Shown here: positions 4,125 to 64,000 of the stretch, piece after piece | Layout of the letters: every line of letters starts with the position of its first letter | Position numbering within the stretch: position 1 is the stretch's first letter | Source: Escherichia phage phita32 | Direction: 5' to 3' (one strand) | DNA length: 64,000 bases | Sequence record: PQ758395 | Position numbers and translations under genes: made by a program | The notes under the pieces: generated by a model | The model's input: only the letters and a program-made list of their open reading frames with translations | The model's database searches: none | What the model was told of the DNA's origin: nothing

Positions 4125-4135
4125 GGCGGCGAGAT

Positions 4136-4822: not shown

Positions 4823-6894
4823 TGGCAACAGCTGTTTTTAAACCTTACCGTGATTACTCTACAATGGCTGCACAGTTTCATTACCGAACAGTTCAGGATA
4901 CTGCCGTTCCTGGTAGGGATTATAATCATGTTGAGGGCGATGTAACTATCCCAATTGGGGCAACCAGTATTGAGATCCCAGTGGAAATTGTTGACAAATT
5001 ACCCAACAGGTTGCCAAGAAGCTTCTTTATGGAGTTTTCATCAAAATCCCAAGGGGTAATGATTGGAACACAAAGGGCGAAATGTACAATAGTTTCAGAT
5101 GAGAATCTCGACAGGATATCTTGGGATACTGTTGAGGAGAGAATGTTCCACCCAAGATATTGGGTTACAACTACTCAGCAGACTGAAAGTACCTGTATTG
5201 TTGCAGATAACAACTGTTGTATTAACCGTTTAGTGTCAAGAACATATGGGGGTATGGCTGGGTGCATTTGGGAAACAGTTGACAAGTATGACCATTTCGG
5301 CATTGGGTTTGATGATCACTATGAGATGAGAAACACCAAGCTTTGGTTCAGAATGTCAATAACCAACGCCAGCAACTTCTCCACTCCTGAAAAGATGATT
5401 ATGACTGTAGACCTTGTTGATGGCACAATCATCTATGTTCCTTTAGCTCAATATGCTGTCAGCATCTCAGAGGATAAGAATGTTGCAGAAATTCATATTG
5501 ATTTCGAGGACTGCGTCGGGATGGACCAGAACAACAACATGATGGGCGTTGATCCCCGACAGGTGAGAAGGATTCTAATACCCCTTATGCCTAAAGATTG
5601 GGTAAGTAATAGCACAGACCCAAGAACGGAAAATGTAGAGTGCGAGTTGCGTCTAGATCTGCTTCAGCCAGACACAGGTTGGAAAATGATGCAACTTAAC
5701 AATATCCAGGTGAAAGAGCACGACGTTGGGATCTGCACAGCATATGACGATATGTGGAACGTATCTCCTTTAAGGGTGTTGAGCAATATCAAGCGTCTGG
5801 GATATACCGGAACCATAAACCATTATGTGGGTATGAGTCATTATTATGACTACACATGGTCAGGAACTCAATGGTCTATAAACAGAACAGGGGCGCTAAA
5901 CGCTGCAGCTTATAAATGGCATGATGATTTTATGTACAATGCCAAACGACATAACTTCGACGTTATGCAGTCTGTAAGTTTTGAGCTTTACAGCGATGCC
6001 TGCCCGTTGGAATGGACCCAAAGAGACTGGAACGATAACTATGCTAAAACAGGGTATACACCTTGTAGCTACCTCCTGTCTCCAACCATTGAAGAGGGTA
6101 TGAATTTCCTTACTGCAGTATTTAAGAATTTTGCATCATCTGCTATGAGAAACAACCTGCCAGTGATTATGCAGATTGGTGAACCGTGGTGGTGGTTCAA
6201 TACCGATACTCGTAAGCCTTGTATTTATGACTACCCTACAAAACAAGCGTTTTATGATGAGACTGGTGAATATGCACTAGACATTGGGACTATTGACGAT
6301 CCTAAAACTGGCGGTGTTTATGACAAGTATGTAGCATTTTGTCGTGGTAAGCTTGGCGCTCGTATTGCGGCTATTTCAAAGGCAATAAAGGCACACGCTG
6401 CATCAGCTCAGATGACAGCTTTGCTGTTTTTCCCAACCATTATGGAAACCGAGCTTACGCAAAAGCTGAACCTTGCTGACCAATACAAAAAGGAAGCAGG
6501 AGCTCTTGATTTCTTCTGCACTGAGTGCTACGATTGGGTGATGCAGGGAGGTATTGAAAAGGCAAAAGAGTCTGTAAACATACCTATCGTTAAGTTAGGT
6601 TGGCAACCGTCTGAAATACAATACCTTGCAGGGTTCGTTCCTAGTAAAGAGCTTGCTCCGGTATATGGCTACGACCCAACTAGGAATTACCAAGAATTTT
6701 TATGGAGATGTATTTGCGGAAACATGGCAACTATAGAGTATAGATACCCTGAGGTAAAACAGTATGTGTGGGCATATCCGCAAGTAATGTCTGACAGCAT
6801 CACTGTTACCGCCAGAGATTCTACCGTGCTTCATATGGGGCAGGTTGCTCTGAAAGGGTATGTAGAAGATGTTGTCCCGCCAGACTTCTCATAA
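4822..6894 (+). CDS. Tail fibre-associated protein (690 aa) with N-terminal Ig/Calx-beta-like segment
   Basis: TAATG stop-start overlap with the upstream gene; N-terminal VEGDVTIPIGATSIEIPVEIVDK beta-sandwich-like motif; large Trp/Tyr-rich C-terminal domain. Confidence 0.4.
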   Translation: MATAVFKPYRDYSTMAAQFHYRTVQDTAVPGRDYNHVEGDVTIPIGATSIEIPVEIVDKLPNRLPRSFFMEFSSKSQGVMIGTQRAKCTIVSDENLDRISWDTVEERMFHPRYWVTTTQQTESTCIVADNNCCINRLVSRTYGGMAGCIWETVDKYDHFGIGFDDHYEMRNTKLWFRMSITNASNFSTPEKMIMTVDLVDGTIIYVPLAQYAVSISEDKNVAEIHIDFEDCVGMDQNNNMMGVDPRQVRRILIPLMPKDWVSNSTDPRTENVECELRLDLLQPDTGWKMMQLNNIQVKEHDVGICTAYDDMWNVSPLRVLSNIKRLGYTGTINHYVGMSHYYDYTWSGTQWSINRTGALNAAAYKWHDDFMYNAKRHNFDVMQSVSFELYSDACPLEWTQRDWNDNYAKTGYTPCSYLLSPTIEEGMNFLTAVFKNFASSAMRNNLPVIMQIGEPWWWFNTDTRKPCIYDYPTKQAFYDETGEYALDIGTIDDPKTGGVYDKYVAFCRGKLGARIAAISKAIKAHAASAQMTALLFFPTIMETELTQKLNLADQYKKEAGALDFFCTECYDWVMQGGIEKAKESVNIPIVKLGWQPSEIQYLAGFVPSKELAPVYGYDPTRNYQEFLWRCICGNMATIEYRYPEVKQYVWAYPQVMSDSITVTARDSTVLHMGQVALKGYVEDVVPPDFS

Positions 6895-31495: not shown

Positions 31496-32701
31496 ATGAT
31501 TTTCATCTACGAACATTTCAAAACTCGTAAAGAAGCACGTGACCGCCGTGCAGAACTTGAGAAGAAGGGTTTCACATGTGCCATTGAGAAAGGTGATACA
31601 ACCTGGACACTGGCAGTTGGTGCCCCAGAGTTGTTCGATCCTGACCGTGACAGCGTCTGCTACACCCGTGAGGATTTTGAAACCCGCGAAGAGGCCCGTT
31701 TATTTCGATATGGGCTGGAAGATAACGGTAAGTACGCCATGATCTTAGACTTAGGCGAAGGTTCCGTTAAACGTTGGGGTGTGGTATACCCACTGTGCGT
31801 TGTTCACGGTGTGGGGTTCACTGGGGTAGCAATCAAGTCAGAAGAACCTTCAGTAGAAGTCAAAGATCCGGTGCTGCAGGTAGTAAGCAGTGTGTCTCAA
31901 CAACAGACTCGAAGCATAGAGCCTTTAGTAGTTATTTGTGGAGAACTTCTCCAGATCACCTGCAACGAAGGCATTTTTGAAATTCGCCGCAGCGAAAGTG
32001 AGGAAGTTTACCAGAAAGTCTTCGACCATATCTCTGTTCAGGAATATGACGAGGCAATTGGTGAAATCCTTGTCTGGTTGGAACGCAAGAATGAGTTCAC
32101 TACACTTGCAGACAACCTGATTATGAAAGATGGTAAGCTCTATTACTACGGTGTAGAGATGCAATCTACCATTGCAAAGAAAATTGAGGAAGATTATGTA
32201 GATGGAACACTGGACGACCGATATGTTAAATTCCTTGTCCGTCTGCTACGCAACCCGTCTGCAAAATCTGTGAACATGCTCTACGATTTCATGCAGGCTA
32301 ATGACATCCAGGTTGCAGAAGATGGTCGAATCATTTGCTATAAGGGGGTTCAGTTTAACGGAAGCAAGTGGGTGGATTGGCACAGCGGTAAAGTTCCACA
32401 ATACCAGGGTGCTTTTGTATCCATGCCTCGTAACTTTGTAGAAGATGATCCGGAAGCTGCGTGTTCTTATGGCCTGCACTGCGCCAGCAAAGAGTATGCA
32501 GCGGGCTATGGCACCGTAATGATGGTTATGGTTGACCCTGCGGATGTGGTTAGTGTGCCATACCAACACAACAGTGCTAAGTGCCGTGCATGCCGCTACG
32601 AAATCGTAGCAGCACCGGAATCACGCAAAGATGGCGATCCGATTGAATACGTAGTTGATCGTGACGGTAACACTATCGACATTCTTTACGAGGAGGCGTA
32701 A
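31496..32701 (+). CDS. Hypothetical protein (about 401 aa)
   Basis: ATG at 31496 with AAGGAGA RBS right after the upstream stop; the track start at 31460 overlaps the upstream gene. Confidence 0.4.
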   Translation: MIFIYEHFKTRKEARDRRAELEKKGFTCAIEKGDTTWTLAVGAPELFDPDRDSVCYTREDFETREEARLFRYGLEDNGKYAMILDLGEGSVKRWGVVYPLCVVHGVGFTGVAIKSEEPSVEVKDPVLQVVSSVSQQQTRSIEPLVVICGELLQITCNEGIFEIRRSESEEVYQKVFDHISVQEYDEAIGEILVWLERKNEFTTLADNLIMKDGKLYYYGVEMQSTIAKKIEEDYVDGTLDDRYVKFLVRLLRNPSAKSVNMLYDFMQANDIQVAEDGRIICYKGVQFNGSKWVDWHSGKVPQYQGAFVSMPRNFVEDDPEAACSYGLHCASKEYAAGYGTVMMVMVDPADVVSVPYQHNSAKCRACRYEIVAAPESRKDGDPIEYVVDRDGNTIDILYEEA

Positions 32702-34071
32702 TGGAAAAGGGGCAGTATGATGTAGGCACAGATGCTGCCCTCGTTGCAATCATGAGCGGTGAGAATGTCTTCGTTTCAGGACCCGCAGGTTGTGGGAAGA
32801 CGTACCTCATCAACATGATCCAGTCAATGTATGGAGACTCTTGCATAACGGTTGCCCCGACAGGGGTAGCCGCTTTAAACGTTAATGGAGCAACAGCACA
32901 CCGAACCTTCGATCTTGCAGCAGGTGTGAGCATGGAGTCAGACTGGACCGCAATAAGGGCAAAAACAGCAAAGCCTTTGAAGAGCAAGGCATTTACCATC
33001 TTAATTATCGATGAAATCTCTATGATCCGTGCTGATAAGTTTATAGAGATGGATAGGAAACTCCGCTTCCTTCGAAAAAATGACAAACCTTTCGGAGGCA
33101 TACAGGTCATATTGTTTGGCGATTTTTACCAGGCACCTCCTGTTGTCTCTTCTATGGAGAAGGAAGCCTACTTCAACTTCTACCATACGGACTTGTGTTG
33201 CTATACCGAATCTTGGAAAGAGCTTGACCTCCACAACATAGCCCTAATAGATCAGTTCCGACAGGAGTCTATTCGATTTGCCACAATGCTTAACTGTGTT
33301 CGTGAGGGTCGTCGCATAAAAGAGGTTGTAGCAGAGCTTAATGCTCACTGTTACAAAGGTGGTGTACCAACAGACGCTCTCACAATTTGCGCCACCAACA
33401 AACAAGCAGAGGAAGTGAACAGAAGGTTCTATGATGCCATCAACGCCCCAGAGAAGGTATACACTGGTGAAATGAAGGGTAAGTTTCCCTCCACCCTGCC
33501 AGTTGAGCAGGAGATGAAGTTGAAAATTGGCATGAAAGTTATGATAACCGCCAATGATGTTGACCCGACGCACAAAGTACCTTATTATGTTAACGGAACA
33601 CGTGCCACAATTGTTAAATTTAAGAACAAGGCAGTGGTGGTAGAGCTTGAAGATGGAACACAGGTTGACATAGAGCAGAGGTTGTGGGAGAATAACGAGT
33701 ATAAGCCCTCTCAGAGATACAACATTGCAGAAAGGAAGATGGAGAAGTTTATAGAGAGGGTAGTGATTGGGTCATACAAGCAACTTCCTCTGAAATCTGG
33801 GTATGCCGTAACATCTCATAAAAGTCAAGGACTTACGCTAGATTGTTACAACCTAGACCTTGGAAAGAACGGAGCTTTCTCTCCTGGGATGACGTATGTT
33901 GCTTTGAGTCGAGTTAAGACAATACAAGGAATAAACTTGTTGCGTCCACTAAGAGAAGTTGACATTATTGTTGACCCGCGAGTCGTAGAGTTTTACAATA
34001 CAACATTCCCTGACTTAGACAAAATTGTCAGGAAAGATTTTGAAACCAGAGCAGAAGAGGGGGACGTATGA
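32701..34071 (+). CDS. Superfamily-1 DNA helicase (Pif1/RecD/Dda-like)
   Basis: Walker A SGPAGCGKT; Walker B ILIIDEISM; C-terminal YAVTSHKSQGLTLD (SF1 motif VI). Confidence 0.6.
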   Translation: MEKGQYDVGTDAALVAIMSGENVFVSGPAGCGKTYLINMIQSMYGDSCITVAPTGVAALNVNGATAHRTFDLAAGVSMESDWTAIRAKTAKPLKSKAFTILIIDEISMIRADKFIEMDRKLRFLRKNDKPFGGIQVILFGDFYQAPPVVSSMEKEAYFNFYHTDLCCYTESWKELDLHNIALIDQFRQESIRFATMLNCVREGRRIKEVVAELNAHCYKGGVPTDALTICATNKQAEEVNRRFYDAINAPEKVYTGEMKGKFPSTLPVEQEMKLKIGMKVMITANDVDPTHKVPYYVNGTRATIVKFKNKAVVVELEDGTQVDIEQRLWENNEYKPSQRYNIAERKMEKFIERVVIGSYKQLPLKSGYAVTSHKSQGLTLDCYNLDLGKNGAFSPGMTYVALSRVKTIQGINLLRPLREVDIIVDPRVVEFYNTTFPDLDKIVRKDFETRAEEGDV

Positions 34072-35710: not shown

Positions 35711-36475
35711 TTGAAATTTATCTACAAAGAACACTACCACAAAGGTGTTGTGTGGAGCCTATTTGACGGGTCTGGTGGTGCAGTCATTGACTGGGCAAAA
35801 GCTGGGTACCTGTGCCTGTGCTTTAATGCAGAAGGTGCTGATCACGGCAGTTATGCAGAGGTGATAACCGATCATCACAACATTCACTATGTGGATTATT
35901 GGATTGATCCATGGTTCCCTCAGGAAACTTTTTGCATGTATCCAGCTCCAGACTTTATTCTTGCATTTCCTCCGTGCACGCATTTAGCGGTATCAGGTGC
36001 TGCACATTTTAAGAAAAAACTGGCTAAGGACCCCATGATCCAAATTAATGCTGTAAAGGATGCTCGGGTTGCGGAAGAGCTGGGAGAGATTTACGATTGC
36101 CCGTGGCATGTAGAGAATCCTGTGGGTGTTATGTCCACACTGTGGCGTAAACCTGATTACCGTTTTCATCCTTCTGACTATGGTGGGTATTTACCGGAGG
36201 ATGATGTAAACCCTTGGTTTCCTGAATTTATAGCTCCACGTGATGCCTATCCAAAAATAACTTGCGGCTGGATAGGTAATGGATTTATAATCCCGCCCAC
36301 AAAACCTGTCCCGCAAATAGTTGACGCGGTTAGCGGGTATTCCATGCAACACGCCAAGCTGGGTGGAAAGAGTGCAAGAACGAAGATGATTCGAAGTCTC
36401 ACACCACGTGGCTGGGCAAAAGCCGTATTCTTAGCAAACGAGCCTGTAGTAAGGAGCAGAATTAATGGGAAGTAA
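35711..36475 (+). CDS. DNA (cytosine-5)-methyltransferase-like protein (about 254 aa)
   Basis: TTG start after AGGAGA RBS (the track GTG at 35681 lies inside the terminator hairpin). Motif I VWSLFDGSGG, motif IV AFPPCTHLAVSG (Pro-Cys), motif VI HVENPVG (ENV). Confidence 0.45.
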   Translation: MKFIYKEHYHKGVVWSLFDGSGGAVIDWAKAGYLCLCFNAEGADHGSYAEVITDHHNIHYVDYWIDPWFPQETFCMYPAPDFILAFPPCTHLAVSGAAHFKKKLAKDPMIQINAVKDARVAEELGEIYDCPWHVENPVGVMSTLWRKPDYRFHPSDYGGYLPEDDVNPWFPEFIAPRDAYPKITCGWIGNGFIIPPTKPVPQIVDAVSGYSMQHAKLGGKSARTKMIRSLTPRGWAKAVFLANEPVVRSRINGK

Positions 36476-38543
36476 ATTTATGGCATCTGCATACAACCGT
36501 TTCGGTGAGCCAAACCCGAAAGCAACTAAGTATAAAAGTGGGGGAAGTGTGAAACGAGACTATCGTGATGAAAAAGAAGTTGAAACTGTAGAGACTGTTT
36601 TAGAAAATACTAAAATTGTCCCTGTCCCACAACAAAATATCGGTCTGATGGCTGCACAATATTTTGGTGTGCGATCAGCATTGTCCCAAGAAGACGGTGT
36701 GACAGTCACTGCAACATATTTCCCATATTACGACCGCTACGGAAATCTGTCTGGTTTCAAAAAGCGTGACTGGACTATTCCTAAAGAGCAAAGGGGCCAT
36801 TTCTCCGTTGTTGGCATCGTAAAGGCCAACTCCCAGATGTTTGGTCAAAAGCTGTGTGCATCTTCCAACAACCGTAAGCAGATTAACGTTTGTGAGGGAG
36901 AAGGTGATGTTATTGCAGCATGGCAGGCTGCATATCAGATACAAGTAAAAGGGATTCTCACCAACGCTAAAGCCCCGGCAAAGGTGAAGCAGTGGGCTAA
37001 AGAGGTCCAGGACGGGATCGACGCAGTTATCAACGGTGGTGATCTGGCAGGAAAACCATGCCTACCTTTTGTTGGAATTAACTGTGGATGTGCAAACGCA
37101 GTAGATACTTTTGCAAACAATGAGAAGTTTATCCGTAGCTATGGAACAGTTGTGCTGGCAATGGATAATGATGCAGCTAACGAGGTAGAGAAGCAAAAAC
37201 ACGTCATTAAAGGTGTTGAGGCCACGCATAATATCGCAGCATTTTTGATGGCTGATAACGTTTACCACGTAGAATACCCTGGTGAAGTAAATGACCCTGA
37301 CGGTGTAAAAGATATCCGAGACATGCTGAAGGCTAAAAAGCTGGAAGATATTGTCAACATGTTCCGGCACCCTGTTAAATATGTGCCTGATGCTGTGTCG
37401 GATTTAGAAGACTTCTCTATCGAGTCTTTGCGGAAAAAGACTTCCAACGGGGTAGATATCAGCGCAGAGTTCCCAAAACTGCAAAAAATGCTAAAAGGCT
37501 TGCACAAAGGGACACTCGTAATGCTTACAGGCCCGTCAGGTGGCGGTAAAACAACTGTAGCTAAAAAACTGGAACACTGTATTGCAAGATACCTAATGGA
37601 CCCGACATGTCCGAAGGCCGATGACTACGAAGAGGATGATCGTCTATGCATGATCCATCTTGAGGAGGACCCAGAGGAAGCAATTAACTCCTTGTATGCA
37701 AACCAGTTAGGGTTTGATGTTAAAGAGTTTGTTGAAGATCCTAGCCAGTTTTTAACTGATCAAGAACACGCAGAGATTCACCAATCATGGGCAAAAGCTG
37801 GAAAAATCAAAGTGTTCAAACATTTCGGATCTATTCCGGTGGACGAGTTGATTACTAAGCTTAAGCAAATGGTTTGCCTGTACCATTGTCGTTATATTGT
37901 ACTGGATCACCTGTCCATGGTAATTTCAGGGCTTAATGTTAAGGATGAGCGAAAAGAACTGGACATGGCTATGACCCAACTGGCTGCGTTTTGTAAGCAG
38001 TTTAACGTGTTTATCTTGGTGATCGCTCACCTCAAGCGTATAGAGATTGTGCCTCCTAAGGACAAGGATGGTAACCCGTTACCTTTCTGGTATCCTGTGC
38101 GAAAAGAGAATTTGCGAGGATCGGCTGGGCTTGAACAGTTGAGTTGGGTAGTCATAGGTGTCGAGGCCGAAGAAATGGTGGATCGTTCTCGTGGACGTGT
38201 CCGTCTGGTAGGTCTTAAAAACCGTCCAGCAAAAACTTTAGGTATTGCTGACACTTTAGTTATGGACCCTCACACAGGCAAGTTCCATGATGCCAGCAAT
38301 TGGTACTGGGACAAAGAAATGCAGATGTTTACAGACGGAGAAGGTGGGGAGGTTGTTTGGAGACCTCAGGCTATGTTTGAGGATCAGGAGCATACAGTTG
38401 TAGAAACACCTATGGGTAAGGTTGTGGCTGATAAGGTTGTAACTCCTACTGTTAAGCCTGTTGACACGCAGGAAGACCTCCAGTACGATGATCCATCCTC
38501 TGACCCTGTCCCTGGTTTTGAGGACGATGAAACGCCTTTTTAA
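36465..38543 (+). CDS. Primase-helicase (T7 gp4-like)
   Basis: TOPRIM-like acidic cluster (VCEGEGDV, MDNDAAN) in the N-terminal half; Walker A LTGPSGGGKTT and helicase motifs in the C-terminal half; AAGGAG RBS. Confidence 0.6.
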   Translation: MGSKFMASAYNRFGEPNPKATKYKSGGSVKRDYRDEKEVETVETVLENTKIVPVPQQNIGLMAAQYFGVRSALSQEDGVTVTATYFPYYDRYGNLSGFKKRDWTIPKEQRGHFSVVGIVKANSQMFGQKLCASSNNRKQINVCEGEGDVIAAWQAAYQIQVKGILTNAKAPAKVKQWAKEVQDGIDAVINGGDLAGKPCLPFVGINCGCANAVDTFANNEKFIRSYGTVVLAMDNDAANEVEKQKHVIKGVEATHNIAAFLMADNVYHVEYPGEVNDPDGVKDIRDMLKAKKLEDIVNMFRHPVKYVPDAVSDLEDFSIESLRKKTSNGVDISAEFPKLQKMLKGLHKGTLVMLTGPSGGGKTTVAKKLEHCIARYLMDPTCPKADDYEEDDRLCMIHLEEDPEEAINSLYANQLGFDVKEFVEDPSQFLTDQEHAEIHQSWAKAGKIKVFKHFGSIPVDELITKLKQMVCLYHCRYIVLDHLSMVISGLNVKDERKELDMAMTQLAAFCKQFNVFILVIAHLKRIEIVPPKDKDGNPLPFWYPVRKENLRGSAGLEQLSWVVIGVEAEEMVDRSRGRVRLVGLKNRPAKTLGIADTLVMDPHTGKFHDASNWYWDKEMQMFTDGEGGEVVWRPQAMFEDQEHTVVETPMGKVVADKVVTPTVKPVDTQEDLQYDDPSSDPVPGFEDDETPF

Positions 38544-38601: not shown

Positions 38602-41031
38602 ATGAGTATGTGGTCTTTCGATCTGGAGGCCTCCGGGCTTTTGGAAGATCTAGATCTTTATTATCACTGCGGTCTGTTTAAAGAGCTGAATAAGAACCGT
38701 TTTATGCTGTTCCTTCCTCTAAATGACCGCACACACTACTCCAAGGAGGATATAGAGAAGGCCAAGAACTTTATTCTGGCAAAGAAAACTCTTTATAAAG
38801 ATTTTGAAGTCCGCATAGCAGATTTTTCGGAGTTGGAAGGTTGGCTTACAGGCAATTCCGACTGGTCACCAACAGCTTTGAACTGCCATAACTGCTACAG
38901 TTATGACTTTATGCTGATGGAGAGATTATCCGGTATTCATTTTGATATGTTCCGTGATCCTAAATGCATGGGGACTATCAACGACCACCAGGTTAATCTG
39001 TTTGATACGTTGGCGATGAGCCGAATCTTGTGGCCTGATCGCCCTTTACCAAAAGGTTGTCCGGACTCTGTATTCAACCCGGTTACTAAGAAAATGCAGC
39101 CTGTTGGTCCTCACGGCCTTATGGCATGGGGCTACGCCCTTGGTAACCAGAAAGTTCAAATTGATGACTGGCGCGATCTTCCGTTGTGGAAGTATGTGGA
39201 TCGTGTATTCGAGGACGTTATCATCCAGGAGCTGCTCTGGAAAGAGCTGGTAGCGGAATCAAAAGGTGTATTCTACGGCAAATCTGACATGCAGAACTTT
39301 ATGTATGATCCTGCCAAAGAGAAGCCGAAAGGGTTCAAGAAGATCACCTGGAAGAACGCATTACGTCGAGGCATGCTGCAGCACTTCCTGATGGAGCTGC
39401 AGGCCCGTCAGGGTGTATACTTCGACATAGATGGAGCTATTGCTTTACGTGACCGTTGCGATGCGTGGATGAAAGAAATCGCTGATCGTGTTGAACCACA
39501 ACTACCTTTAAAAGAGCTGTCAATGTCTCAGCGGCCCAAGTTCCCTGAAAAGCCGTTTAACCAAGACGGGACAATCTCTAATAATGGTTGGAAATGGTTA
39601 AAAGATAAGCTTGGCTATCCTGTAGACATGAGCGCTTTAGAGTTCAAAGCCCCGCCTAAGCGAGCATTTACCTCTACAGGGGATGTCAGCAAGATGGGGA
39701 TAAAATGGTGTGAAGAGATGGGCTGCAAAGACCCCGATAAGATGGCTGATTTCTTGAGAGGCTATATTAAGGGTACCTCCACACCACAACCTTTACCTAA
39801 AGAGCTAATGGATCAGGCAATAAGTGATCTGCAGCAGAAGCGAATGCCTGACTGCAAGATACCTATGAAAATCGGCAATCAGGACGACATCAAGCGATAC
39901 CTAATCAGTGCTGGTTGGCTCCCAACAATGTGGAGAACTAAAGATGTAACTAAAGACAGCAAGAAGAAAGCTTTACCTGATGCAGATGTTGATGCACGAG
40001 TATATGCATACATGGACGAGCTTTTAGAGTCAGAGTATTGTGACCTGATTATCAACTTCTGGAACAAAACTGATGCTAAGTTTCAGACAACCGTGCACAA
40101 GTTCCGAAGCTTTCCTAACTCCGAAAGGATTAAAAAGGAAGTGTTCGGGAAAATACGTAGAAAAGCCAGGGCACTTATTACTTCTCCGCAACTGAAAGAT
40201 ACGTTTGGACACCTATGCCCAAATCTTGAAAAATTGAACGGAGAGATGGCTAAAGATATCGTCTTGTGGTTATCATTGCGAAACCGCAGATCGGTCCTTG
40301 ATCCAATCAAGGAGGATAAGGTTGATACTGGTCTTCTTAATCACCCACGTTTGAAGATTGACCATAAGCTTCCTGCTAAAAGCTCTGGATTAACAAACAC
40401 TTCCAGACAGAAACACAGTATTTGTGCAAACATGCCTAAACCATCTCCTAAAGTGGTTATGGGTAAAGAGATGCGTAGTCTGTGGGGTGTTCCTCCAGGA
40501 TACTTTGAGATCGGTATTGACGGGTCCAACTTAGAGCAGCTTATCGGGGCTTGGGGTGCCTTTGAGTTCGACAACGGCTTGTATTATGATGTTGTAAGTA
40601 ACGGAGACGCACACCAAAACAATGCTGAGGCATATACAAAAGTAGCAGGCAGAGAGGTGTCCCGTAACGACGGTAAACCTATCACGTATGGGGTTATGTA
40701 CGGGGCACAAAAAGATAAAGTTGCAGATATGCTGGACATCTCTCCAGAGTTGGGACAAAGGGTAATCGATGCACTCTGGGATGCCAACCCAGGTCTTAAG
40801 GGGCGCAAAGAGGATCTGGAGAAATTCTGGGAAGCAACAGGTAAGAAGTTTATCTACTCTTTTGATGGTCATGCTATCTGGACCAGATCTAAACACTCTT
40901 TACTTAATGCATACCAACAAAATGGCGGTGCATCGTTGTGTGACTTAGTTGGAATACTCATGCACCACCAGATGGTGAAGCGTGGGTGGTACGATGAAGG
41001 TGTTCGTCGTATTATTTATTACCATAAATAA
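38602..41031 (+). CDS. DNA polymerase, family A (with 3'-5' exonuclease domain)
   Basis: N-terminal FDLEASGL (exo motif I); polymerase motif A region IGIDGSNLEQL; motif B region KPITYGVMYGAQ; AAGGAGA RBS. Confidence 0.65.
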   Translation: MSMWSFDLEASGLLEDLDLYYHCGLFKELNKNRFMLFLPLNDRTHYSKEDIEKAKNFILAKKTLYKDFEVRIADFSELEGWLTGNSDWSPTALNCHNCYSYDFMLMERLSGIHFDMFRDPKCMGTINDHQVNLFDTLAMSRILWPDRPLPKGCPDSVFNPVTKKMQPVGPHGLMAWGYALGNQKVQIDDWRDLPLWKYVDRVFEDVIIQELLWKELVAESKGVFYGKSDMQNFMYDPAKEKPKGFKKITWKNALRRGMLQHFLMELQARQGVYFDIDGAIALRDRCDAWMKEIADRVEPQLPLKELSMSQRPKFPEKPFNQDGTISNNGWKWLKDKLGYPVDMSALEFKAPPKRAFTSTGDVSKMGIKWCEEMGCKDPDKMADFLRGYIKGTSTPQPLPKELMDQAISDLQQKRMPDCKIPMKIGNQDDIKRYLISAGWLPTMWRTKDVTKDSKKKALPDADVDARVYAYMDELLESEYCDLIINFWNKTDAKFQTTVHKFRSFPNSERIKKEVFGKIRRKARALITSPQLKDTFGHLCPNLEKLNGEMAKDIVLWLSLRNRRSVLDPIKEDKVDTGLLNHPRLKIDHKLPAKSSGLTNTSRQKHSICANMPKPSPKVVMGKEMRSLWGVPPGYFEIGIDGSNLEQLIGAWGAFEFDNGLYYDVVSNGDAHQNNAEAYTKVAGREVSRNDGKPITYGVMYGAQKDKVADMLDISPELGQRVIDALWDANPGLKGRKEDLEKFWEATGKKFIYSFDGHAIWTRSKHSLLNAYQQNGGASLCDLVGILMHHQMVKRGWYDEGVRRIIYYHK

Positions 41032-50398: not shown

Positions 50399-50588
50399 GC
50401 TTAAATCTGCATGGAACATCGCTGTGGGGGACGAGATCCGCATCCCAGGTGGAAAGACCATTATGAAGATATCACGTATCGAGTATGAAGGTGATCGTGT
50501 ATTTCATATCTTTGCAGAAGATGGCCGAGAAATTTATATACAGGCAGGCTCTCACATCTATATCCGTAAGAAAGGGGACGACAAATGA
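50385..50588 (+). CDS. Hypothetical protein (67 aa)
   Basis: AGGAGGG RBS; overlaps the neighbour. Confidence 0.35.
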   Translation: MQMFKLKSAWNIAVGDEIRIPGGKTIMKISRIEYEGDRVFHIFAEDGREIYIQAGSHIYIRKKGDDK

Positions 50589-50917
50589 CAGAGATCATCG
50601 TTTCAACTGCAGGGTATGTATTCCTGACAATCATTGCGCTGGCTATTCTGGTGGCGGTGTATGGATTTGTTATCCTGCCTATTCTTGAGACATTTAGTTT
50701 GTGTCGGTGCTGGAGAAAAGCTTACGGACCACAACCGTGGAAAGACTGGTTCCATTTGGTGCGTATAGCGTTCTCTTATGCCTATGACCACTCTAGCAGT
50801 GCATGCGTAACCGGGTACCATGCCTACAACTGGAACTGGGAAGGGCTGGGGAGATGGACTGTTACAAAAACTATACCCTTACGGTTGTATAAAGGAAAGA
50901 ACACACTGGGAGCCTGA
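50585..50917 (+). CDS. Hypothetical membrane protein (110 aa)
   Basis: Two hydrophobic helices at the N-terminus; Cys/Trp-rich tail. Confidence 0.35.
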   Translation: MTEIIVSTAGYVFLTIIALAILVAVYGFVILPILETFSLCRCWRKAYGPQPWKDWFHLVRIAFSYAYDHSSSACVTGYHAYNWNWEGLGRWTVTKTIPLRLYKGKNTLGA

Positions 50918-50939
50918 TATTTTAAGTTATCAGGTTGCC

Positions 50940-51450
50940 AGAGATCAGGAGGATTTCTAAAATGGATTTCCTCCTTTTGATATTTTACCTACCAGGATAT
51001 TTTAAAATCCTTAGAAAATCAGAAAATGGATCGAAAACTAAAATGGATTTTTCAGAGCAGGCACGACGAGATGAACCACTCATCCTATCGTTTGCACCAT
51101 ATTCCAGACCACCATTACAGATTTCCCGCACATGCTCACATCCTTCTCCTAGAACTTCCCCCACTTACCCTTGACCTTTTATGGTAATGATATAACCACT
51201 ATCTTGAAGTTGCGGTGCAGCTTTCCAAGTACTCGATCTGTTTTTCGTTTCAAAGATTGAATTTTCTGAAAATTTTTCTCGATAAATTTCTCAGTACTCG
51301 ATCTGTTTTTCGTTTTCTGAATCGGATTTTCTGGAAATCGTTCCGGCTCTCGACCTGAAATTTTTGGGGACGAAATCGATTTTTCGTTTTCAGAAATGGA
51401 TTTTTAAAATTTCTATATGGGAATATTTTAGTGGATACTATTTTATAGGA
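50940..51450. repeat. Non-coding repeat region: AAATGGATTT motifs and about 3 degenerate ~60-bp direct repeats (AGTACTCGATCTGTTTTTCGTTT...)
   Basis: AGTACTCGATCTGTTTTTCGTTT occurs at about 51229 and 51292 with a degenerate third copy near 51350; (A)AAATGGATT(T) recurs at least four times between 50955 and 51400; no credible ORF. Confidence 0.6.
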
Positions 51451-51553
51451 AATTGTTACGGAGGGTAATTAGCGTGCTAATTAAATTTATTAAATGCGAG
51501 GAGTTCTAATTTAGAATTTTGAATGATAATCATTCTCGTTTGCAGAATAACGG

Positions 51554-51575
51554 GCAGGCCCGGTGATTGTCTCCC
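51554..51575 (+). repeat. Conserved element copy 1 (GCAGGCCCGGTGATTGTCTCCC)
   Basis: 22-nt core also present inverted at 61118..61139; 13-mer GTGATTGTCTCCC also at 51697. Confidence 0.6.
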
Positions 51576-51696
51576 GGCCCCTGTTGCCCCGGCTTGTTAT
51601 TATAGTATCACGCAGGACAAAGAAAGCAAGGATTTTTTGCATAAATTTTTAGACGATAATGATAACCGTTCTCATTCTATCTAGCGCCCATCCCCA

Positions 51697-51709
51697 GTGA
51701 TTGTCTCCC
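51697..51709 (+). repeat. Conserved element copy 2 (GTGATTGTCTCCC core in a paralogous ~100-nt unit)
   Basis: Units at about 51519-51620 and 51650-51760 share GATAAT(C/G)AT..GTTCTC..GTGATTGTCTCCC..TAT..CAC.AGG. Confidence 0.5.
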
Positions 51710-52058
51710 CCGTCACCAGGGCCTGCCGTCCTTTCGATAGGTATATTGTGCCACCTGGCGGGGCCGCTGTCAACACCTTTCAAAAAAAAAAAATTATAAC
51801 CAGGTGCGCCCACTGCCAGGACCTGGCGGGGCCAACCTGGCAGGTCCGCGCTATAAAGTGAACAGCTACAGAAGAGGTACAAAAATGAAAGGTAATGCTA
51901 CTCACCTGGAAAATAGTAATTGATGATACGGAAGCTATCGCCCTGGTCGAGAAGGCTAAAACTGAAGCACCGGAACATAAAGAAGAGTACGAAAAACGGT
52001 GGTGATCTGGCAGGGCGGCGGCAGGTGGATTCTATCATAAAAATAATTTAAAATAATT

Positions 52059-52087
52059 GTTGACAACCGGGGGAGTCCTGCTATTCT
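52059..52087 (+). promoter_or_regulatory. Sigma70-like promoter (TTGACA-N16/17-TATTCT)
   Basis: AT-rich upstream region, consensus -35; precedes the gene at 52139. Confidence 0.5.
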
Positions 52088-52138
52088 TATCCTACAAGGT
52101 GAACAACACCGCACTAACTAGTAAAGAGGATAAAAATC

Positions 52139-52351
52139 ATGAACGCATACGGAATCAAAGTACGTCGCAACACTCGCCAGGTGGTAACCGATCAAGTGGT
52201 TTGCCTGGTGGATGTAACCATCAACAACGGGCAAGGCCTTTATAAATTTCGTCGCGGTCATAGTTATACCCTGCAACAGCTTAACCGTTGCGCCCTGACA
52301 AAAGGTCAGATCAACCACTGGTTTAATAAAAAAATAAATATTGACATGTAG
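52139..52351 (+). CDS. Early small protein (70 aa)
   Basis: AAAGAGGA RBS plus own promoter. Confidence 0.45.
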   Translation: MNAYGIKVRRNTRQVVTDQVVCLVDVTINNGQGLYKFRRGHSYTLQQLNRCALTKGQINHWFNKKINIDM

Positions 52352-61060: not shown

Positions 61061-61089
61061 TTGACTTGTTCGGCCCCTTTTGCTATTCT
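61061..61089 (+). promoter_or_regulatory. Sigma70-like promoter (TTGACT-N17-TATTCT), -35 within a GGGG...CCCC hairpin
   Basis: Reads through the inverted copy of the 22-nt element. Confidence 0.4.
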
Positions 61090-61117
61090 TATTAAACGGG
61101 CGGCACTTGGGAACAGG

Positions 61118-61139
61118 GGGAGACAATCACCGGGCCTGC
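61118..61139 (-). repeat. Conserved element copy 3, inverted (GGGAGACAATCACCGGGCCTGC on the + strand)
   Basis: Exact reverse complement of 51554..51575. Confidence 0.6.
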
Positions 61140-61165
61140 CTGTCATATAAGAACTATAAAAACCT

Positions 61166-61249: not shown

Positions 61250-61522
61250 ATGTCAAGCTGGATTAATCAAGAAGTCGAATCACGTTTTAATGCTATTTGG
61301 GATCTCATCGAAAAAGAGGACGGAACATCAAGCCCCTACCTCAACAATTTGGAATTCCATTTTGTGGAAGCGATGAACGCAGAACATGATCACGAAGGTG
61401 GCGCGGATGAGTTCGCTAAAGGTTATGGCTTTAACAATGCCAACGAAATGATCGAGGCGGTAGTACTCCAGGCTGAGGAAGATTATCAATTAAAAACTCT
61501 TGAATTCTGCCGCCGCAAGTAA
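61250..61522 (+). CDS. Early acidic protein (90 aa)
   Basis: Promoter and RBS present. Confidence 0.45.
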   Translation: MSSWINQEVESRFNAIWDLIEKEDGTSSPYLNNLEFHFVEAMNAEHDHEGGADEFAKGYGFNNANEMIEAVVLQAEEDYQLKTLEFCRRK

Positions 61523-61983: not shown

Positions 61984-62403
61984 ATGAATATTAAATCTAA
62001 CAATCCCGCATACAGCTTTGATAACGCTTTTTGTCACGGCCCAGCCGCAAAAGGTTTTGAAATTGATGGTAAACTGGTTATTGTGAATGTTGACGGGGAA
62101 GAGGTTGCAGTATATCCGGTGGCAGACGTTAAAAGCCGTTTACAATGCCGCATTGATGTTACCGCATATCAGCTTGATCCGGTCCGCGTAGTTGCCCTGG
62201 TCCTGGAGGAAGAAATCAAAGCGATGCACCATAGTAACAGGTTTATTGGTGACGCGCAGGATAATATGAAGGTGTGCCGTTATAAAGTTAATGAAGTGCT
62301 TAAAGAATATGGATTTAAGGATCTGATGATCAAACGTGATGAAAAATTTCGTTATCGTAACGACCTGGCAAATCGAATCTATGAAATATACGAATCATTA
62401 TAA
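61984..62403 (+). CDS. Early protein (139 aa)
   Basis: AAGAGG RBS; terminator follows. Confidence 0.45.
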   Translation: MNIKSNNPAYSFDNAFCHGPAAKGFEIDGKLVIVNVDGEEVAVYPVADVKSRLQCRIDVTAYQLDPVRVVALVLEEEIKAMHHSNRFIGDAQDNMKVCRYKVNEVLKEYGFKDLMIKRDEKFRYRNDLANRIYEIYESL

Positions 62404-62421
62404 TTTTTTAACTGAATTATC

Positions 62422-62448
62422 AAGGGGCTTAAAGCCCCTTTCTTTTTG
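62422..62448 (+). terminator. Intrinsic terminator (AAGGGGCTT-AAA-GCCCCTT + T-run)
   Basis: Ends the + strand early-gene array. Confidence 0.65.
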
Positions 62449-62449
62449 T

Positions 62450-64000
62450 CTCCTCTTTTCCTACCACAAACGGCCAAGCCTGGCAAGTGGAATAATTGAC
62501 TAGCCAGCAATTACCAACACTGTACAAACATACATGTAAAATAGCTATTGCATAATATTTCATTGTGTGGTAGCAGGGCCATTTTTACCCGCTTTTCCTT
62601 CCAAAACTGCATGTAATTCCACTATTGCACAAAATTTAACCTGATGCACAATATCTCTTTCTTGTCAACAACTAAAAATCTTTATAAGTCATACACTTAC
62701 ATAACCACAAAAGCGTGTTCTACGTGAAAAATCGGGTATAACTATAGCCACTAAATTCCAGAATTCACGTAGCGTCACCATTCTATAGCCCGCTAAGTAT
62801 TTATTCCGACCATAGAATAACGGAATAGTCAATACCTGCATAAAATAATTATTCGTGTAAACTGCATAACATAAATCAGCTAGGGTGTCAACATTTTTCG
62901 TAAACAGCTTGAAATTATCACGGTGAGTTATCATAAGCAGATAAATCTTTAGTCGTCTAATGTTTACTGTACGTTACTATACTAACTGAAATCATTAGAT
63001 GACTAAGAGAAAGATAAGAAATCATTAACAATGCAATTGTTTTATTCGTAACAATAAGGCAACTATGCAAACGAATGGCATGGCGCGACGGAGTCGCGAC
63101 ATAATATAAAAGCAGTAACCATCACCCCCGTGATAGTTTGTCTGCAAACTATTAATCAGATCATAGTTGCCTTGTATTTAGTTAATCATGACATAAACTC
63201 AGGCATAGCCTTCGTCTCGAGGATGTTAACAAGCAAGGCAACTATAGATCTGCTAATAGTTGCCCTGCTTTTATATTATGTCATAGAAACACCCGAAGGG
63301 GTGACCAAAGGTCACCTGGCATAGCCAGTGAAAGATTATTAACTTGCTAATTGTCAACTTGTTGGCTGTTAGCTTGTCAATTGTAAACTAGTTAATTGTT
63401 ATCATGCAAACGAATGGCATGGCTTATCATCTATGCGTGAACTATCCAGGCGTAAACAGTCTATGTGGGAACAATCTATACGTGAACAGTGAAACATGAA
63501 ATAATAACAGTCGTTATTGTGGCGTATTGTGCTGCAGTATGTCATATTGTGTCAGACAAGTTTTTCTCCTCTTTGTCAAGTGCTGCATGAAAAATTTACA
63601 ATCTTGTATGGTAGCATTTTGCGGCCCTGTTTACATTCAGGAATGTATGTATAATCCTTGTTGTGTGGGCGTTTAGACGTCTGGACGGTCAGAAGTCTGC
63701 AGGTTAATATCTAATCTATTGGCTGCTAACTATATCCCCCACAAATAATAAGAAATATAATTGTTATATGTGTAAACCGTAACTCATGTTATCAATCCCT
63801 GTATGTATCGCCAGTGGTGCGCATAATGGGTATTATGTTAAATTGCCCGTAATGATAACTATTCTCACAATGATAGGTATTCTCATTCACCCCACAAGAT
63901 AGGTTGCAAATGTTGTGCCACTGTGTGAACGGCCTCACCTATTAATTTGCCTCACTGCCTCGATATTTGAGAATTATTATAAGAATGAAAAGTATTCCCA
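62450..64000. repeat. AT-rich non-coding region with dispersed repeats and palindromes
   Basis: GCAAACGAATGGCATGGC twice (about 63066 and 63407); GGCAACTAT / ATAGTTGCC inverted pairs (63058-63270); TTGTCAA-containing direct repeats (63351-63400); palindromes CGCGAC-GGA-GTCGCG (about 63085) and GGTGACC-AAA-GGTCACC (about 63300); no convincing ORF with an RBS. Confidence 0.5.

Follow-up and report, generated by a model that had tools for sequence, protein, structure and literature searches.

Location and conservation of the non-coding region

The window (the whole 64-kb stretch of DNA that was analysed) belongs to a Vequintavirus (rV5-like) phage whose replisome genes, for a gp4-like helicase and for a polymerase of family A, are of the T7 type (Table 1). 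The plus-strand genes upstream of the region studied here end at position 50917 and are followed by about 1 kb in which no ORF survives comparison with relatives, in agreement with an earlier sequence-only reading that had found no credible ORF there. Almost all of the features listed in that reading are present in the sequence at the positions it gave. However, it had placed the region next to the replication module, and the replication genes lie ~10 kb upstream, separated from it by roughly 25 small ORFs.

Judged from comparison with related phages, this gene-free stretch is a strongly conserved DNA control region. Among 11 Vequintavirus sequences, positions 51230-51790 were nearly invariant, while the flanking genes and a spacer within the region were more variable. 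The region matched 121 phage records at 80-99% identity and its core matched 243 records from several genera, indicating that its features go beyond chance. An ordered layout was common to at least 11 lineages of the Vequintavirinae and Stephanstirmvirinae. It comprises clusters of GATATTT and AAATGGATTT, three long CTCGATC-type repeats, the equivalent of the least stable DNA of the window, one to four Fur boxes at an exact 29-bp spacing, and sigma-70 promoters on the minus strand that read back into the region. The order from GATATTT cluster to CTCGATC repeats, Fur boxes and GC-rich unit was shared by 11 lineages, with the CTCGATC core motif itself absent from phAPEC8 and L024 among the lineages compared. 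In all 11 lineages the core of the GC-rich unit (GGTG) begins exactly 40 bp after the start of the last Fur box.

A protein-anchored search of IMG/VR added only two further loci, and a 15-nt scan of viral contigs returned mostly chance matches. Neither a homologue of the module nor homology flanking the boxes was found among 5,426 E. coli genomes, and capture of the module from the host chromosome was rejected on this basis. A scan for tRNA and tmRNA genes in the window, including its second non-coding region, found none.

Table 1 Features of the non-coding region and related loci in the window
Feature	Position	Strand	Description
PIF1-like helicase gene	32701-34071		
DnaB-like helicase gene	36465-38543		
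Family A polymerase gene	38602-41031		
Short-repeat cluster	50916..51050		GATATTTTA x3 (50916, 50979, 50996); AAATGGAT(T/C) x3 (50960, 51025, 51041)
Variable non-coding spacer	51070..51230		Many substitutions and 1-2-nt indels among relatives
Three long direct repeats	51219..51420		Each with (A/T)CTCGA(T/C)C, TTTTCGTTT and GATTTTCT
Candidate DNA unwinding element	51395..51494		Least stable 100 bp of the 64-kb window
18-bp palindrome	51466..51483		TAATTAGC-GT-GCTAATTA; read from the sequence
Degenerate third Fur box (relic)	51493..51511		29 bp before box 1
Fur box 1	51522..51540		AATGATAATCATTCTCGTT; two mismatches to the 9-1-9 consensus
GC unit 1	51544..51590	minus	Core GGTGATTGTCTCC at 51562-51574
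Putative promoter P1	51602..51629	minus	Sigma-70 type, TTGCTT-16-TACTAT with TGn; read from the sequence
Fur box 2	51658..51676		AATGATAACCGTTCTCATT; three mismatches to the 9-1-9 consensus
GC unit 2	51682..51725	minus	AGTGATTGTCTCC at 51696-51708; paralogue of unit 1
Putative promoter P2	51745..51773	minus	Sigma-70 type, TTGACA-17-CACAAT with TG; 10/12 matches
Third module copy	61061..61146	plus	Promoter TTGACT-17-TATTCT, then GC unit; upstream of the gene at 61250
Two further Fur boxes	63851..63887		In the second non-coding region; 15.6 and 15.5 bits, third and fourth best of the window

Repeats and unstable DNA

The short-repeat cluster was near-invariant among the 11 Vequintavirus sequences, and 10 other lineages have clusters of two to four GATATTT(G) motifs with AAATGGTTTTC at the corresponding end. 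The 10-mer AAATGGATTT is confined to the region within the 64 kb. At least four copies had been reported; there are three exact copies (50960, 51041, 51394) and two variants, AAATGGATC at 51025 and AATCGGATTT at 51318.

The roughly three degenerate direct repeats of ~60 bp that had also been described were located at 51219, 51284 and 51358, with spacings of 65 and 74 bp and with 77% and 74% identity to the middle copy. Within the window, GATCTGTTTTT and TTTTCGTTT are confined to these repeats, which are almost invariant in Vequintavirus; most other lineages compared carry three to five CTCGATC-type repeats at 65-78-bp spacing in the equivalent position. No signal of RNA structure was found in this AT-rich repeat segment on either strand (z = -0.4 and -0.2), which argues that the repeats act as DNA. 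A structured RNA in the AT-rich repeats was accordingly dismissed (z about -0.3 on both strands).

In a nearest-neighbour stability scan, the segment listed in Table 1 as a candidate DNA unwinding element reached z = 3.9, and the 300-bp window at 51236-51535 reached z = 3.7. The GC content at the least stable segment is 33%. Since AT-rich intergenic DNA with promoters is generally unstable, low stability of this kind is not specific to origins. The 18-bp palindrome was kept in Vequintavirus and was not seen in other genera. At the opposite end of the region, two exact copies of ACCTGGCGGGGCC (51753 and 51821; span 51753..51833) flank a run of 12 A at 51782-51793; the two motifs and the poly-A tract had both been listed in the sequence-only reading. 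The copy at 51753 lies inside the P2 spacer, and in relatives the poly-A tract is 5 to 12 A long.

Fur boxes

Boxes 1 and 2 gave the two top scores of the window (23.4 and 20.9 bits) with a Fur matrix built only from E. coli Fur-regulated promoters. In leave-one-out tests the E. coli sites themselves, which are the best consensus matches picked inside known Fur-regulated intergenic regions, scored 12.8-20.9 bits. Matches to the 19-bp 9-1-9 inverted repeat AATGATAATnATTATCATT with at most three mismatches numbered three, against 0.07 expected, and none of 200 shuffled sequences equalled this. Box 1 was invariant in 11 of 11 Vequintavirus sequences and kept in all other genera, and a Fur box is present at a fixed position in all 11 lineages. 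Box 2 has a single base that is polymorphic in relatives, the change being toward the consensus. The relic differs from AATGATAATnATTATCATT at six positions (counted by hand), reads TTCTAATTT in the window and TTCTCATTT in relatives, and keeps the 29-bp register of the multi-box arrays of other genera.

We infer that host Fur binds boxes 1 and 2, and the matrix scores, the invariance and the fixed position argue strongly for this. Box 1 is two bases away from the fhuA operator, and the box of most other genera, AATGATAATCATTCTCATT, is one base away from the ryhB operator. A phage-encoded Fur was dismissed, as no Fur homologue was found in any Vequintavirinae or Stephanstirmvirinae record; the boxes could instead bind an unrecognised phage protein with Fur-like specificity. 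We found no description of Fur sites in this region in the searchable literature. The Fur boxes before each GC unit, together with the sigma-70 promoters on the minus strand, are the most informative features of the region and were absent from the sequence-only reading.

Strong Fur boxes and arrays were also found in intergenic gaps of many unrelated viral contigs, with at least two strong boxes within 200 bp at 34 of 119 loci.

Putative leftward promoters and GC-rich units

Both putative promoters are on the minus strand, and their hexamers were conserved: those of P1 were invariant in Vequintavirus, where a TATAAT at 19-nt spacing offers an alternative, and those of P2 were kept in relatives, with CATAAT in L130. 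Of 12 other modules scanned, 10 have a promoter on the minus strand with a score of 8.5-10 of 12 and with its end 60-68 bp short of the Fur box; the hexamers of these promoters are kept, and their spacer sequences are unrelated. In this window the top match of the promoter scan at P1 was CTTTCT-16-TATAAT (7.5, 58 bp); P1 as listed and the equivalent TTGCTT-16-TATTCT of phAPEC8/ECML were identified by eye. The box lies at about +50 to +70 from the strong leftward promoter. Box 1 also overlaps the spacer of a doubtful plus-strand promoter, TTGAAT-18-CAGAAT, and the point at which a weak sigma-70-like promoter on the minus strand of GC unit 1 (GAGACA-18-TATTCT) would start transcription. Any of these overlapping promoter-like signals around the box may be the one in use.

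The two paralogous GC-rich units that had been described were found at 51522-51575 and 51658-51709, at a spacing of 134-136 bp. Other genera have, in place of unit 2, a GC element of ~100 nt that is unrelated to unit 2 and absent from the window.

The third module copy has the same promoter-to-unit orientation as units 1 and 2. It is syntenic in Certrevirus CR8 and in a Phapecoctavirus, ~10 kb downstream of unit 1, and the CR8 copy has a Fur box of its own after it. Trans-antisense action of units 1 and 2 on the leader that contains unit 3 was rejected: the units are identical in Vequintavirus, and within genomes of Certrevirus or Phapecoctavirus unit 1 does not co-vary with unit 3, leaving such targeting unsupported.

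Coding and small-RNA readings

A 79-aa ORF does exist at 50935, but 1- and 2-nt indels inside it in relatives make it not credible, as had been suspected. The annotation of a CDS of 92-95 aa over both GC units (51523-51800) in rV5 (ORF198), Pr121LW, JEP1, Mangalyan and Gotham would favour a protein-coding function for part of the region. However, the ORF198 frame has an in-frame stop in the window and in L130, and its equivalent ends after six or seven codons in phAPEC8 and Mydo. Synonymous-type variation is almost nil, and the ORF at 50935 is shifted out of frame by indels in relatives. The coding reading is thus already contradicted, and we give it next to no weight.

The sequence-only reading had also proposed that the GC-rich units might encode small RNAs, which at best received weak support. 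In such a case the units would be small structured RNA genes, producing either a Fur-repressed rightward sRNA that starts after TTGAAT-18-CAGAAT or short leftward RNAs that end at the unit hairpin. The plus-strand arrangement, with a Fur box in the spacer, occurs in 7 of 13 modules, a U-rich stretch (UUAUUCU) follows each hairpin, and on the minus strand one or two pairs in the ~100-nt GC element of other genera are compensatory. Some units fold better than shuffled sequences (z = -3.0 in CR3 and z = -2.7 for unit 2 of the window, minus strand), but the other copies, including the unit 1 hairpin, do not (z from -1.3 to +1.2), so that folding is inconsistent among lineages over the range from -3.0 to +1.2. 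Changes in the arms between genera are uncompensated in the opposite arm, and the plus-strand hexamer does not keep its essential A at position -11 (CGGAAT, CTGAAT, TGGAAT). A covariance-model search of 49.5-53.5 kb at a permissive threshold gave no real Rfam match, the sole match in the window at E < 1 being at chance level (E = 0.59; 22 bits, with a gathering score of 126), and seven related loci gave none. We dismissed the GC units as conserved hairpins because of the inconsistent folding and the uncompensated arm changes, and we consider small structured RNA genes improbable.

A candidate replication origin

The sequence-only reading had called the region a candidate origin or regulatory hub. 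As a description this holds well, as the region is conserved, non-coding, repeat-rich DNA of a protein-binding type and has the least stable duplex of the window; an origin function goes further than these properties prove. The repeats, the easily melted DNA and the inward promoters fit a replication origin but do not prove one. The iteron-like repeats beside AT-rich DNA that had been taken as an origin signature are present, but the 65-78-bp spacing of the long repeats is atypical of iterons, which in theta origins are spaced by ~22 bp. P2 and P1 are directed into the adjacent least stable DNA, as in transcription-activated origins.

Several other indicators of an origin gave negative results. 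GATC is not enriched at the region, and no DnaA box (TTATCCACA, up to one mismatch) or IHF site (WATCAANNNNTTR) was found in 50500-52200, which counts against origin function. No adjacent initiator gene was found; the neighbouring small proteins have no Pfam domain, and one relative has a DUF7170 protein. The cumulative GC skew at 50.9-51.9 kb flattens with no inversion or extremum; since skew in rV5-like phages follows the direction of transcription, it is a weak test for an origin. The leftward transcript is only slightly enriched in G (skew -0.06 to 0.39), so proneness to R-loops is not demonstrated. The second non-coding region, ~12 kb from the hub, combines Fur boxes with very unstable DNA, and the GC-skew switch published for rV5 at 104,425-105,475 maps to it. 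It could be the real origin. The rV5 genome paper drew a "non-coding" box and did not locate the origin, and nothing relevant on the origin, Fur or transcriptomics in rV5-like or phAPEC8-like phages was found in the searchable literature.

In the T7 primary origin the tandem promoters phi1.1A/1.1B precede an AT-rich segment, and T4 oriF and oriG each combine a promoter with a downstream unwinding element. The region resembles them in having two tandem promoters that point into unstable AT-rich DNA, and the gp4-like helicase and family A polymerase of the window phage add to the likeness with T7. However, the promoters of the window are of the host sigma-70 type, and sites for a host repressor lie between them and the AT-rich DNA. 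To our knowledge, the T7 and T4 origins also lack extensive ordered repeats such as those of the rV5-like region. With the iteron theta origins (lambda ori, pSC101, R6K and P1) the region shares short direct repeats at about one-helical-turn spacing near AT-rich DNA and host-factor sites, whereas neither DnaA boxes nor IHF sites nor an adjacent initiator gene were found at the region.

Proposed mechanism and alternatives

Direct results of the computations are the anatomy and the conservation of the region, the matches to promoters and to Fur boxes, and the low stability of the duplex. They hint, more faintly, that transcription is gated here and that the segment serves as an origin. The explanation that we favour, with confidence a little short of even, is that the region is a DNA-level cis-acting hub, being neither a gene nor primarily a structured RNA, in which host Fur gates leftward transcription into an iteron-bearing segment that is most likely a transcription-activated origin. 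The tandem promoters P2 and P1 would fire leftward, away from the early gene array. About 60 bp downstream of each, the polymerase would meet a GC-rich unit and then a high-affinity Fur operator, and past box 1 it would enter the most easily melted DNA, the three long repeats, the spacer and the short iteron-like repeat cluster. Iron-loaded dimers of host Fur would occupy the boxes, and their occupancy would set how much transcription by the host RNA polymerase enters the AT-rich repeats. Fur may work as a roadblock, or it may repress GAGACA-18-TATTCT, the weak embedded promoter that starts on the box. Leftward transcription would then open or prime the segment for the T7-type replisome of the phage, so that origin firing would be coupled to the iron status of the host. 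An operator ~50-70 nt downstream of a start site is unusual for repression, which counts against gating.

The region may instead take no part in replication and be a regulatory locus that responds to iron, in which Fur controls early leftward non-coding transcription; we regard this as possible. The transcript would act by transcriptional interference, as an antisense RNA to read-through out of the replication and middle operon upstream, or as short regulatory RNAs, tuning the phage programme to host iron. Its strength is that it draws on the promoters and Fur boxes, which are the best-supported parts of the region, and that leftward transcription converges on the plus-strand genes upstream. 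Moreover, the third module precedes protein-coding genes at 61250, its Fur box in CR8 indicates that Fur control is not limited to the putative origin, and strong boxes and arrays in the intergenic gaps of unrelated viral contigs point the same way. However, this reading leaves unexplained the extreme conservation, order and fixed spacing of the AT-rich repeats, which are free of RNA structure. No target or terminator is identifiable, and the transcribed GC units show no covariation.

A Fur decoy appears unlikely. Here the amplified phage boxes would titrate host Fur and derepress the iron-uptake and iron-sparing regulon to the benefit of iron-dependent phage enzymes, and the nearby promoters would be incidental. 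Derepression of the regulon by multicopy Fur sites is known and is the principle of the Fur titration assay (PMC2189734). The scores of the boxes, which are at least as high as those of the strongest E. coli operators, the arrays in relatives, with as many as four boxes at a fixed spacing, the further boxes elsewhere in the genome and the similar arrays in T5-like phages all agree with titration. However, a local cis function is favoured by the rigid 40-bp coupling of the last box to the GC unit and by the conserved promoter at a distance of 60 bp, and in Vequintavirus the array has been cut down to two boxes and a relic. More unlikely still is a cis-acting DNA site of a different kind, for example a pac site recognised in packaging or a membrane or nucleoid anchor, comparable to the "injection stop signal" of T5. 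The 1.66-kb conserved untranslated region of T5-like phages does have ordered repeats, a DnaA box and four strong Fur boxes, and for PhiTE-type relatives headful packaging of circularly permuted genomes has been described, which requires a pac site somewhere. However, there is no homology to the T5 region beyond the Fur boxes, the region is not beside the terminase genes, and the conserved inward promoters would be left without a role. An injection stop is unlikely in a circularly permuted genome, since the end that enters is not fixed. A mimic of the pseudo-ToxI (type III antitoxin-like) element of phiTE was dismissed as well, since the phiTE escape locus lies at 106,714-106,772, between genes 202 and 203, and the counterpart of the hub in phiTE is at about 39.0-39.8 kb.

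Comparison with known Fur systems and implications

The phage boxes resemble the ryhB and fhuA operators of E. coli in their 19-bp 9-1-9 palindrome and the shared AATCATTCTC(A/G)TT, and their matrix scores equal or exceed those of the host sites. They differ in lying in a virulent phage, not before an iron-related gene, and ~50-70 nt downstream of the best promoter. While host operators form overlapping clusters with a 6-bp offset (PMC2189734), the phage boxes are non-overlapping with a 29-bp period.

In T5-like phages the Untranslated Repeat Region 3, or injection stop signal, is likewise an ORF-free stretch of 1-1.7 kb, more conserved than the neighbouring genes, with ordered repeats, palindromes and host-factor boxes at the border of the earliest gene block, and several strong Fur boxes occur in both regions. 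However, T5 has DnaA boxes, in paired inverted repeats, and a location in the terminal repeat, neither of which applies to the rV5-like region. Host Fur boxes on phage DNA are also found in temperate phages, where stx1 is Fur-regulated cargo. The sitABCD genes of lambdoid phages are another such cargo (PMC6969025). In those cases the boxes control a protein-coding prophage operon, whereas the phage studied here is strictly virulent and carries them in a non-coding hub.

It is conceivable, if rather doubtful, that at least two unrelated families of large virulent enterophages, the rV5-like/phAPEC8-like myoviruses and the T5-like siphoviruses, independently recruited host Fur as a regulatory or structural part of their main non-coding control regions, and that in rV5-like phages a phased Fur array between the early promoters and the unwinding element licenses replication or the early-to-middle switch according to the iron status of the cell. 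This would represent an iron checkpoint in a lytic phage.

No origin or master control region had previously been identified for rV5-like/phAPEC8-like phages, which are widely used as broad-host-range candidates for therapy and biocontrol. Our analysis gives the region a precise and conserved anatomy that is open to mutation, and predicts that host Fur binds 51522-51540 and 51658-51676. Should Fur indeed gate either replication or early transcription, the performance of these phages would depend on iron availability, which bears on their efficacy in an iron-limited host environment, and the Fur regulon would gain a branch in virulent phages. The Fur boxes in the long-puzzling "injection stop" region of T5 suggest that a general principle may be at work, and may provide a new handle on the T5 problem.

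Position and coding content of the hub

The window derives from an rV5-like myovirus, and its positions 50800-52100 matched 121 phage records at 80-99% identity, nearly all of them Vequintavirus. The sequence-only reading had placed the ~1-kb gene-free stretch at 50930-51900 (the hub) directly next to the replication genes. We found these genes ~10 kb upstream, with ~25 small plus-strand ORFs in between. Downstream, small plus-strand genes follow one another in a long array from 52060 on, all of them preceded by a near-consensus sigma-70 promoter. With this layout, the hub separates the replication/middle block from the early array. Three early promoters (53298, 53919, and 57636) share a near-identical 18-nt spacer, TTGAC(T/G)-ccagggccatc(a/g)ataaag-TAAA(C/T)T, pointing to duplication of a promoter cassette or to a site bound within the spacer. 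It should be noted that 16-17 records titled 'Campylobacter phage' are 92-93% identical to the hub of this E. coli phage; they are probably mislabelled or contaminant assemblies.

Candidate ORFs in the hub failed comparison with relatives, bearing out the view that no credible gene lies there. Indels of 1 and 2 nt in relatives ruled out the 79-aa ORF at 50935. Several records annotate a 92-95-aa CDS across both GC-rich units ('ORF198' of rV5), which we rejected because of an in-frame stop in the window and in the Vequintavirus relative L130; the equivalent frame stops within a few codons in phAPEC8 and Mydo. The small gene that follows (51886-52051) is a 57-aa ORF in Gotham, but in the window and slur16 a 2-nt deletion near 51913 leaves a 12-codon ORF.

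The repeats described earlier were largely recovered: three long direct repeats, two paralogous GC-rich units 134-136 bp apart, the poly-A tract, and two exact copies of ACCTGGCGGGGCC. For AAATGGATTT, of which at least four copies had been claimed, only three exact copies exist, plus two further variants.

Features of the window in and around the hub
Feature	Position	Strand	Remarks
PIF1-like helicase	32701-34071		upstream of hub
DnaB-like helicase	36465-38543		upstream of hub
Family A DNA polymerase	38602-41031		upstream of hub
Conservation zone 1	50950-51070		nearly invariant
Conservation zone 2	51070-51230		indel-bearing variable spacer
Conservation zone 3	51230-51790		nearly invariant
Conservation zone 4	51790-51880		variable, poly-A length included
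Long direct repeats	51219, 51284, 51358
Least stable 300 bp of window	51236-51535
Least stable 100-bp duplex of window	51395-51494		z = 3.9
Perfect 18-bp palindrome	51466-51483		TAATTAGC-GT-GCTAATTA
Core detectable in other genera	51481-51638
Degenerate relic of a third box	51493-51511		29-bp register retained
Fur box 1	51522-51540		AATGATAATCATTCTCGTT; two mismatches to consensus
GC unit 1	51544-51590
Promoter P1	51629-51602	minus	TTGCTT-16-TACTAT
Fur box 2	51658-51676		AATGATAACCGTTCTCATT; three mismatches to consensus
GC unit 2	51682-51725
Promoter P2	51773-51745	minus	TTGACA-17-CACAAT, TG upstream
Poly-A tract	51782-51793		12 A
Third module (sigma-70 promoter, then GC unit)	61061-61146	plus	upstream of gene at 61250, same transcriptional orientation
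Second ORF-free region	62400-64000		extends further
Least stable DNA of second region	62776-63075		second least stable of window
Fur boxes of second region	63851, 63869

Predicted Fur boxes

The sequence-only reading overlooked that the hub's palindromes resemble Fur boxes, as judged by the single-dimer 9-1-9 consensus AATGATAATnATTATCATT modelled by Chen et al. (PMC2189734). The box sequence in most other genera is AATGATAATCATTCTCATT, and the phage boxes differ by 1-2 bases from two strong host operators taken directly from the E. coli K-12 chromosome, those of ryhB (AATAATAATCATTCTCATT) and fhuA (TATAATAATCATTCTCGTT). A weight matrix was built from seven sites, all from E. coli Fur-regulated promoters. 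Boxes 1 and 2 were its best and second-best positions in the entire 64-kb window (23.4 and 20.9 bits), and the host sites themselves reached 12.8-20.9 bits (leave-one-out), scores to be read knowing that the training sites were chosen as the best consensus matches within known Fur-regulated intergenic regions. Matches with ≤3 mismatches numbered three in the window against 0.07 expected, a count reached in 0 of 200 shuffles, and all three lie in non-coding DNA.

No Fur homologue is encoded in any of 50,697 phage records from these subfamilies, so the host Fur is the likely ligand, and we consider it quite likely that host Fur binds the predicted boxes. No homologue of the module was found in 5,426 E. 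coli genomes, which argues against a recent capture of a host promoter.

Conservation and shared architecture

In an alignment of 11 Vequintavirus sequences, the hub fell into alternating zones of conservation, and the coding DNA on either side was clearly less conserved than zone 3. The poly-A tract varies like a hypervariable homopolymer between P2 and the early array, with 5-12 A among close relatives and partly T instead. A sensitive search detected the core in Certrevirus, Seunavirus, and Mydovirus (Vequintavirinae) and in Stephanstirmvirinae (phAPEC8 group), in every genome within an ORF-free gap of 0.8-1.2 kb at the syntenic position.

The gap has a common architecture in 11 lineages, with five elements in fixed order: 2-4 GATATTT(G) repeats together with repeats of the AAATGG(A/T)TTT type, about one helical turn apart; a spacer; 3-5 long repeats around (A/T)CTCGA(T/C)C, 65-78 bp apart; 1-4 palindromes of 19 bp spaced exactly 29 bp; and a GC-rich unit whose core GGTG(A/T)TT follows the last palindrome at exactly 40 bp, measured start to start. 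Among these lineages, the (A/T)CTCGA(T/C)C motif was not found in phAPEC8 and in the compared locus L024. The perfect palindrome within the least stable DNA is kept in Vequintavirus and absent in other genera, where extra Fur boxes occupy about the same position.

In genera other than Vequintavirus (compared loci L003-L009, e.g., L004 2631-2747), unit 2 is replaced by a highly conserved ~100-nt GC-rich element, CCGGCGATCCACCTTCC...GTTAGCCCCGCCTTTTCGCCGTGGGGTGGCG, with its own minus-strand promoter ahead and two adjoining CTTTACA repeats. This element had no Rfam match and showed 1-2 compensatory pairs, on the minus strand only.

Promoters and GC-rich units

We scanned 13 modules, the window's included, for promoters scored out of 12. 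A minus-strand promoter scoring 8.5-10 was present in 10 of the 12 other modules, with 60-68 bp between the end of its -10 element and the Fur box. Between genera, the spacers are unrelated but the hexamers persist, which is the signature of a working promoter. In the window, the top match at the place of P1 was CTTTCT-16-TATAAT (7.5, 58 bp); P1 itself was read by eye, as was the equivalent TTGCTT-16-TATTCT of phAPEC8/ECML. A weaker promoter-like GAGACA-18-TATTCT coincides with the conserved GC-unit core in 8 of 13 modules and would have its transcription start right on the box. A plus-strand TTGAAT-18-CAGAAT with the Fur box in its spacer (7/13 modules) is doubtful, since the critical A of the -10 element is replaced in several lineages.

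The third module shares 23 identical nt with unit 1, and a second promoter lies between it and the 61250 gene. It is syntenic in Certrevirus and Phapecoctavirus, and in CR8 its own Fur box comes after. Its orientation and the CR8 box indicate that transcription runs from promoter through GC unit to Fur box in all three modules.

The suggestion that the GC units encode small RNAs found no good support, and we rate it among the less likely explanations. Relative to shuffles, some copies folded better (z = -3.0, -2.7) and others worse (up to +1.2), one arm changes between genera without compensation in the other, and no Rfam family matched the units. The leftward transcript has more G runs than C runs in all lineages, yet the skew is small. 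Within Vequintavirus, unit 3 is identical to unit 1, but the two diverge independently in other genera, and we therefore dropped them as an antisense-target pair. Conservation here concerns the primary sequence and its fixed distance from the Fur box, a pattern that fits a DNA site or promoter element.

A possible replication origin

From right to left, the hub consists of tandem early promoters, a GC unit, phased host-repressor sites, unwinding-prone DNA, long repeats, a spacer, and iteron-like short repeats. Relative to the leftward promoters, the least stable stretch is downstream, starting directly past Fur box 1, and the 321 nt with the long repeats showed no RNA structure on either strand. 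We propose that the hub is a DNA-level nucleoprotein assembly in which Fur would control the access of host RNA polymerase to the AT-rich repeat segment. The replisome genes of the phage are of T7 type, and the T7 primary origin and T4 oriF/oriG are promoters feeding into an AT-rich element, which makes a transcription-activated origin the most economical function. The whole proposal of a Fur-gated hub with such an origin is tentative, its chances close to balanced, and that this stretch is specifically an origin is somewhat less likely than not. The repeats and low-stability DNA speak for an origin; however, neither DnaA boxes nor IHF sites were found around the hub, GATC shows no clustering there, and the cumulative GC skew flattens without inversion. 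The earlier interpretation, origin or regulatory hub, is supported in part, and the observation behind it stands.

The main rival to the transcription-activated origin is a purely regulatory, iron-responsive non-coding transcription unit. That the hub is a Fur decoy, or another cis site such as pac, is less likely.

A candidate alternative origin is the second ORF-free region (~2.5 kb; 2720-5210 of the naam locus L142), where plus- and minus-strand gene blocks converge. It contains Fur boxes and, in naam, GATATTTG repeats. In the rV5 genome paper, the origin could not be located, and skew switches were reported only at changes of transcription direction; one of them, at 104,425-105,475, corresponds to this region, from ~62.4 kb of the window. 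One 'non-coding' box without ORFs in a figure legend of that paper may be either the hub or the larger region beyond 62.4 kb.

Fur boxes in other phages

In the searched literature, we found no mention of Fur boxes, an origin, or transcripts in the hub, and no earlier description of Fur boxes in a non-coding hub of any virulent phage. Cargo operons of temperate phages, e.g., sitABCD (PMC6969025), are known to carry Fur boxes. The phiTE pseudo-ToxI locus lies elsewhere in its genome and is not the hub equivalent.

In style, the hub comes closest to the untranslated Repeat Region 3 ('injection stop signal') of T5-like phages. When we traced the box sequence in IMG/VR, four strong Fur boxes (1-2 mismatches, up to 24.8 bits) turned up in this conserved 1.66-kb untranslated region of the terminal repeat (L265 1865-2380, Escherichia phage AKFV33, HQ665011 ~8.66-9.18 kb; also L209), where their neighbours are a perfect DnaA box and numerous GTGCAAATCCGACA repeats. 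The Davison preprint on the T5 region lists DnaA boxes and palindromes and never mentions Fur. Furthermore, the exact Fur-type palindrome occurred in at least 120 viral contigs (IMG/VR loci L146-L264), and among the matches listed, 34 of 119 exact-box loci had at least two strong boxes in a span of 200 bp, mostly in gaps free of ORFs and often as tandem 29-35-bp arrays (e.g., L244 1810-1888, L234, L158 2215-2745, L200). In the 347-kb contig L180, a Fur box combined with a GC-unit-like sequence occurs twice, as inverted copies.

Given the T5 boxes and these multi-box loci, arrays of Fur boxes may be common in phage control regions generally and have been overlooked. The stretch studied here is a conserved repeat hub, guarded by Fur boxes and fed by promoters. 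The known kinds of element that it resembles are the Fur operator and the transcription-activated or iteron origin, and its probable role is that of an origin or early control switch tied to the iron status of the host.
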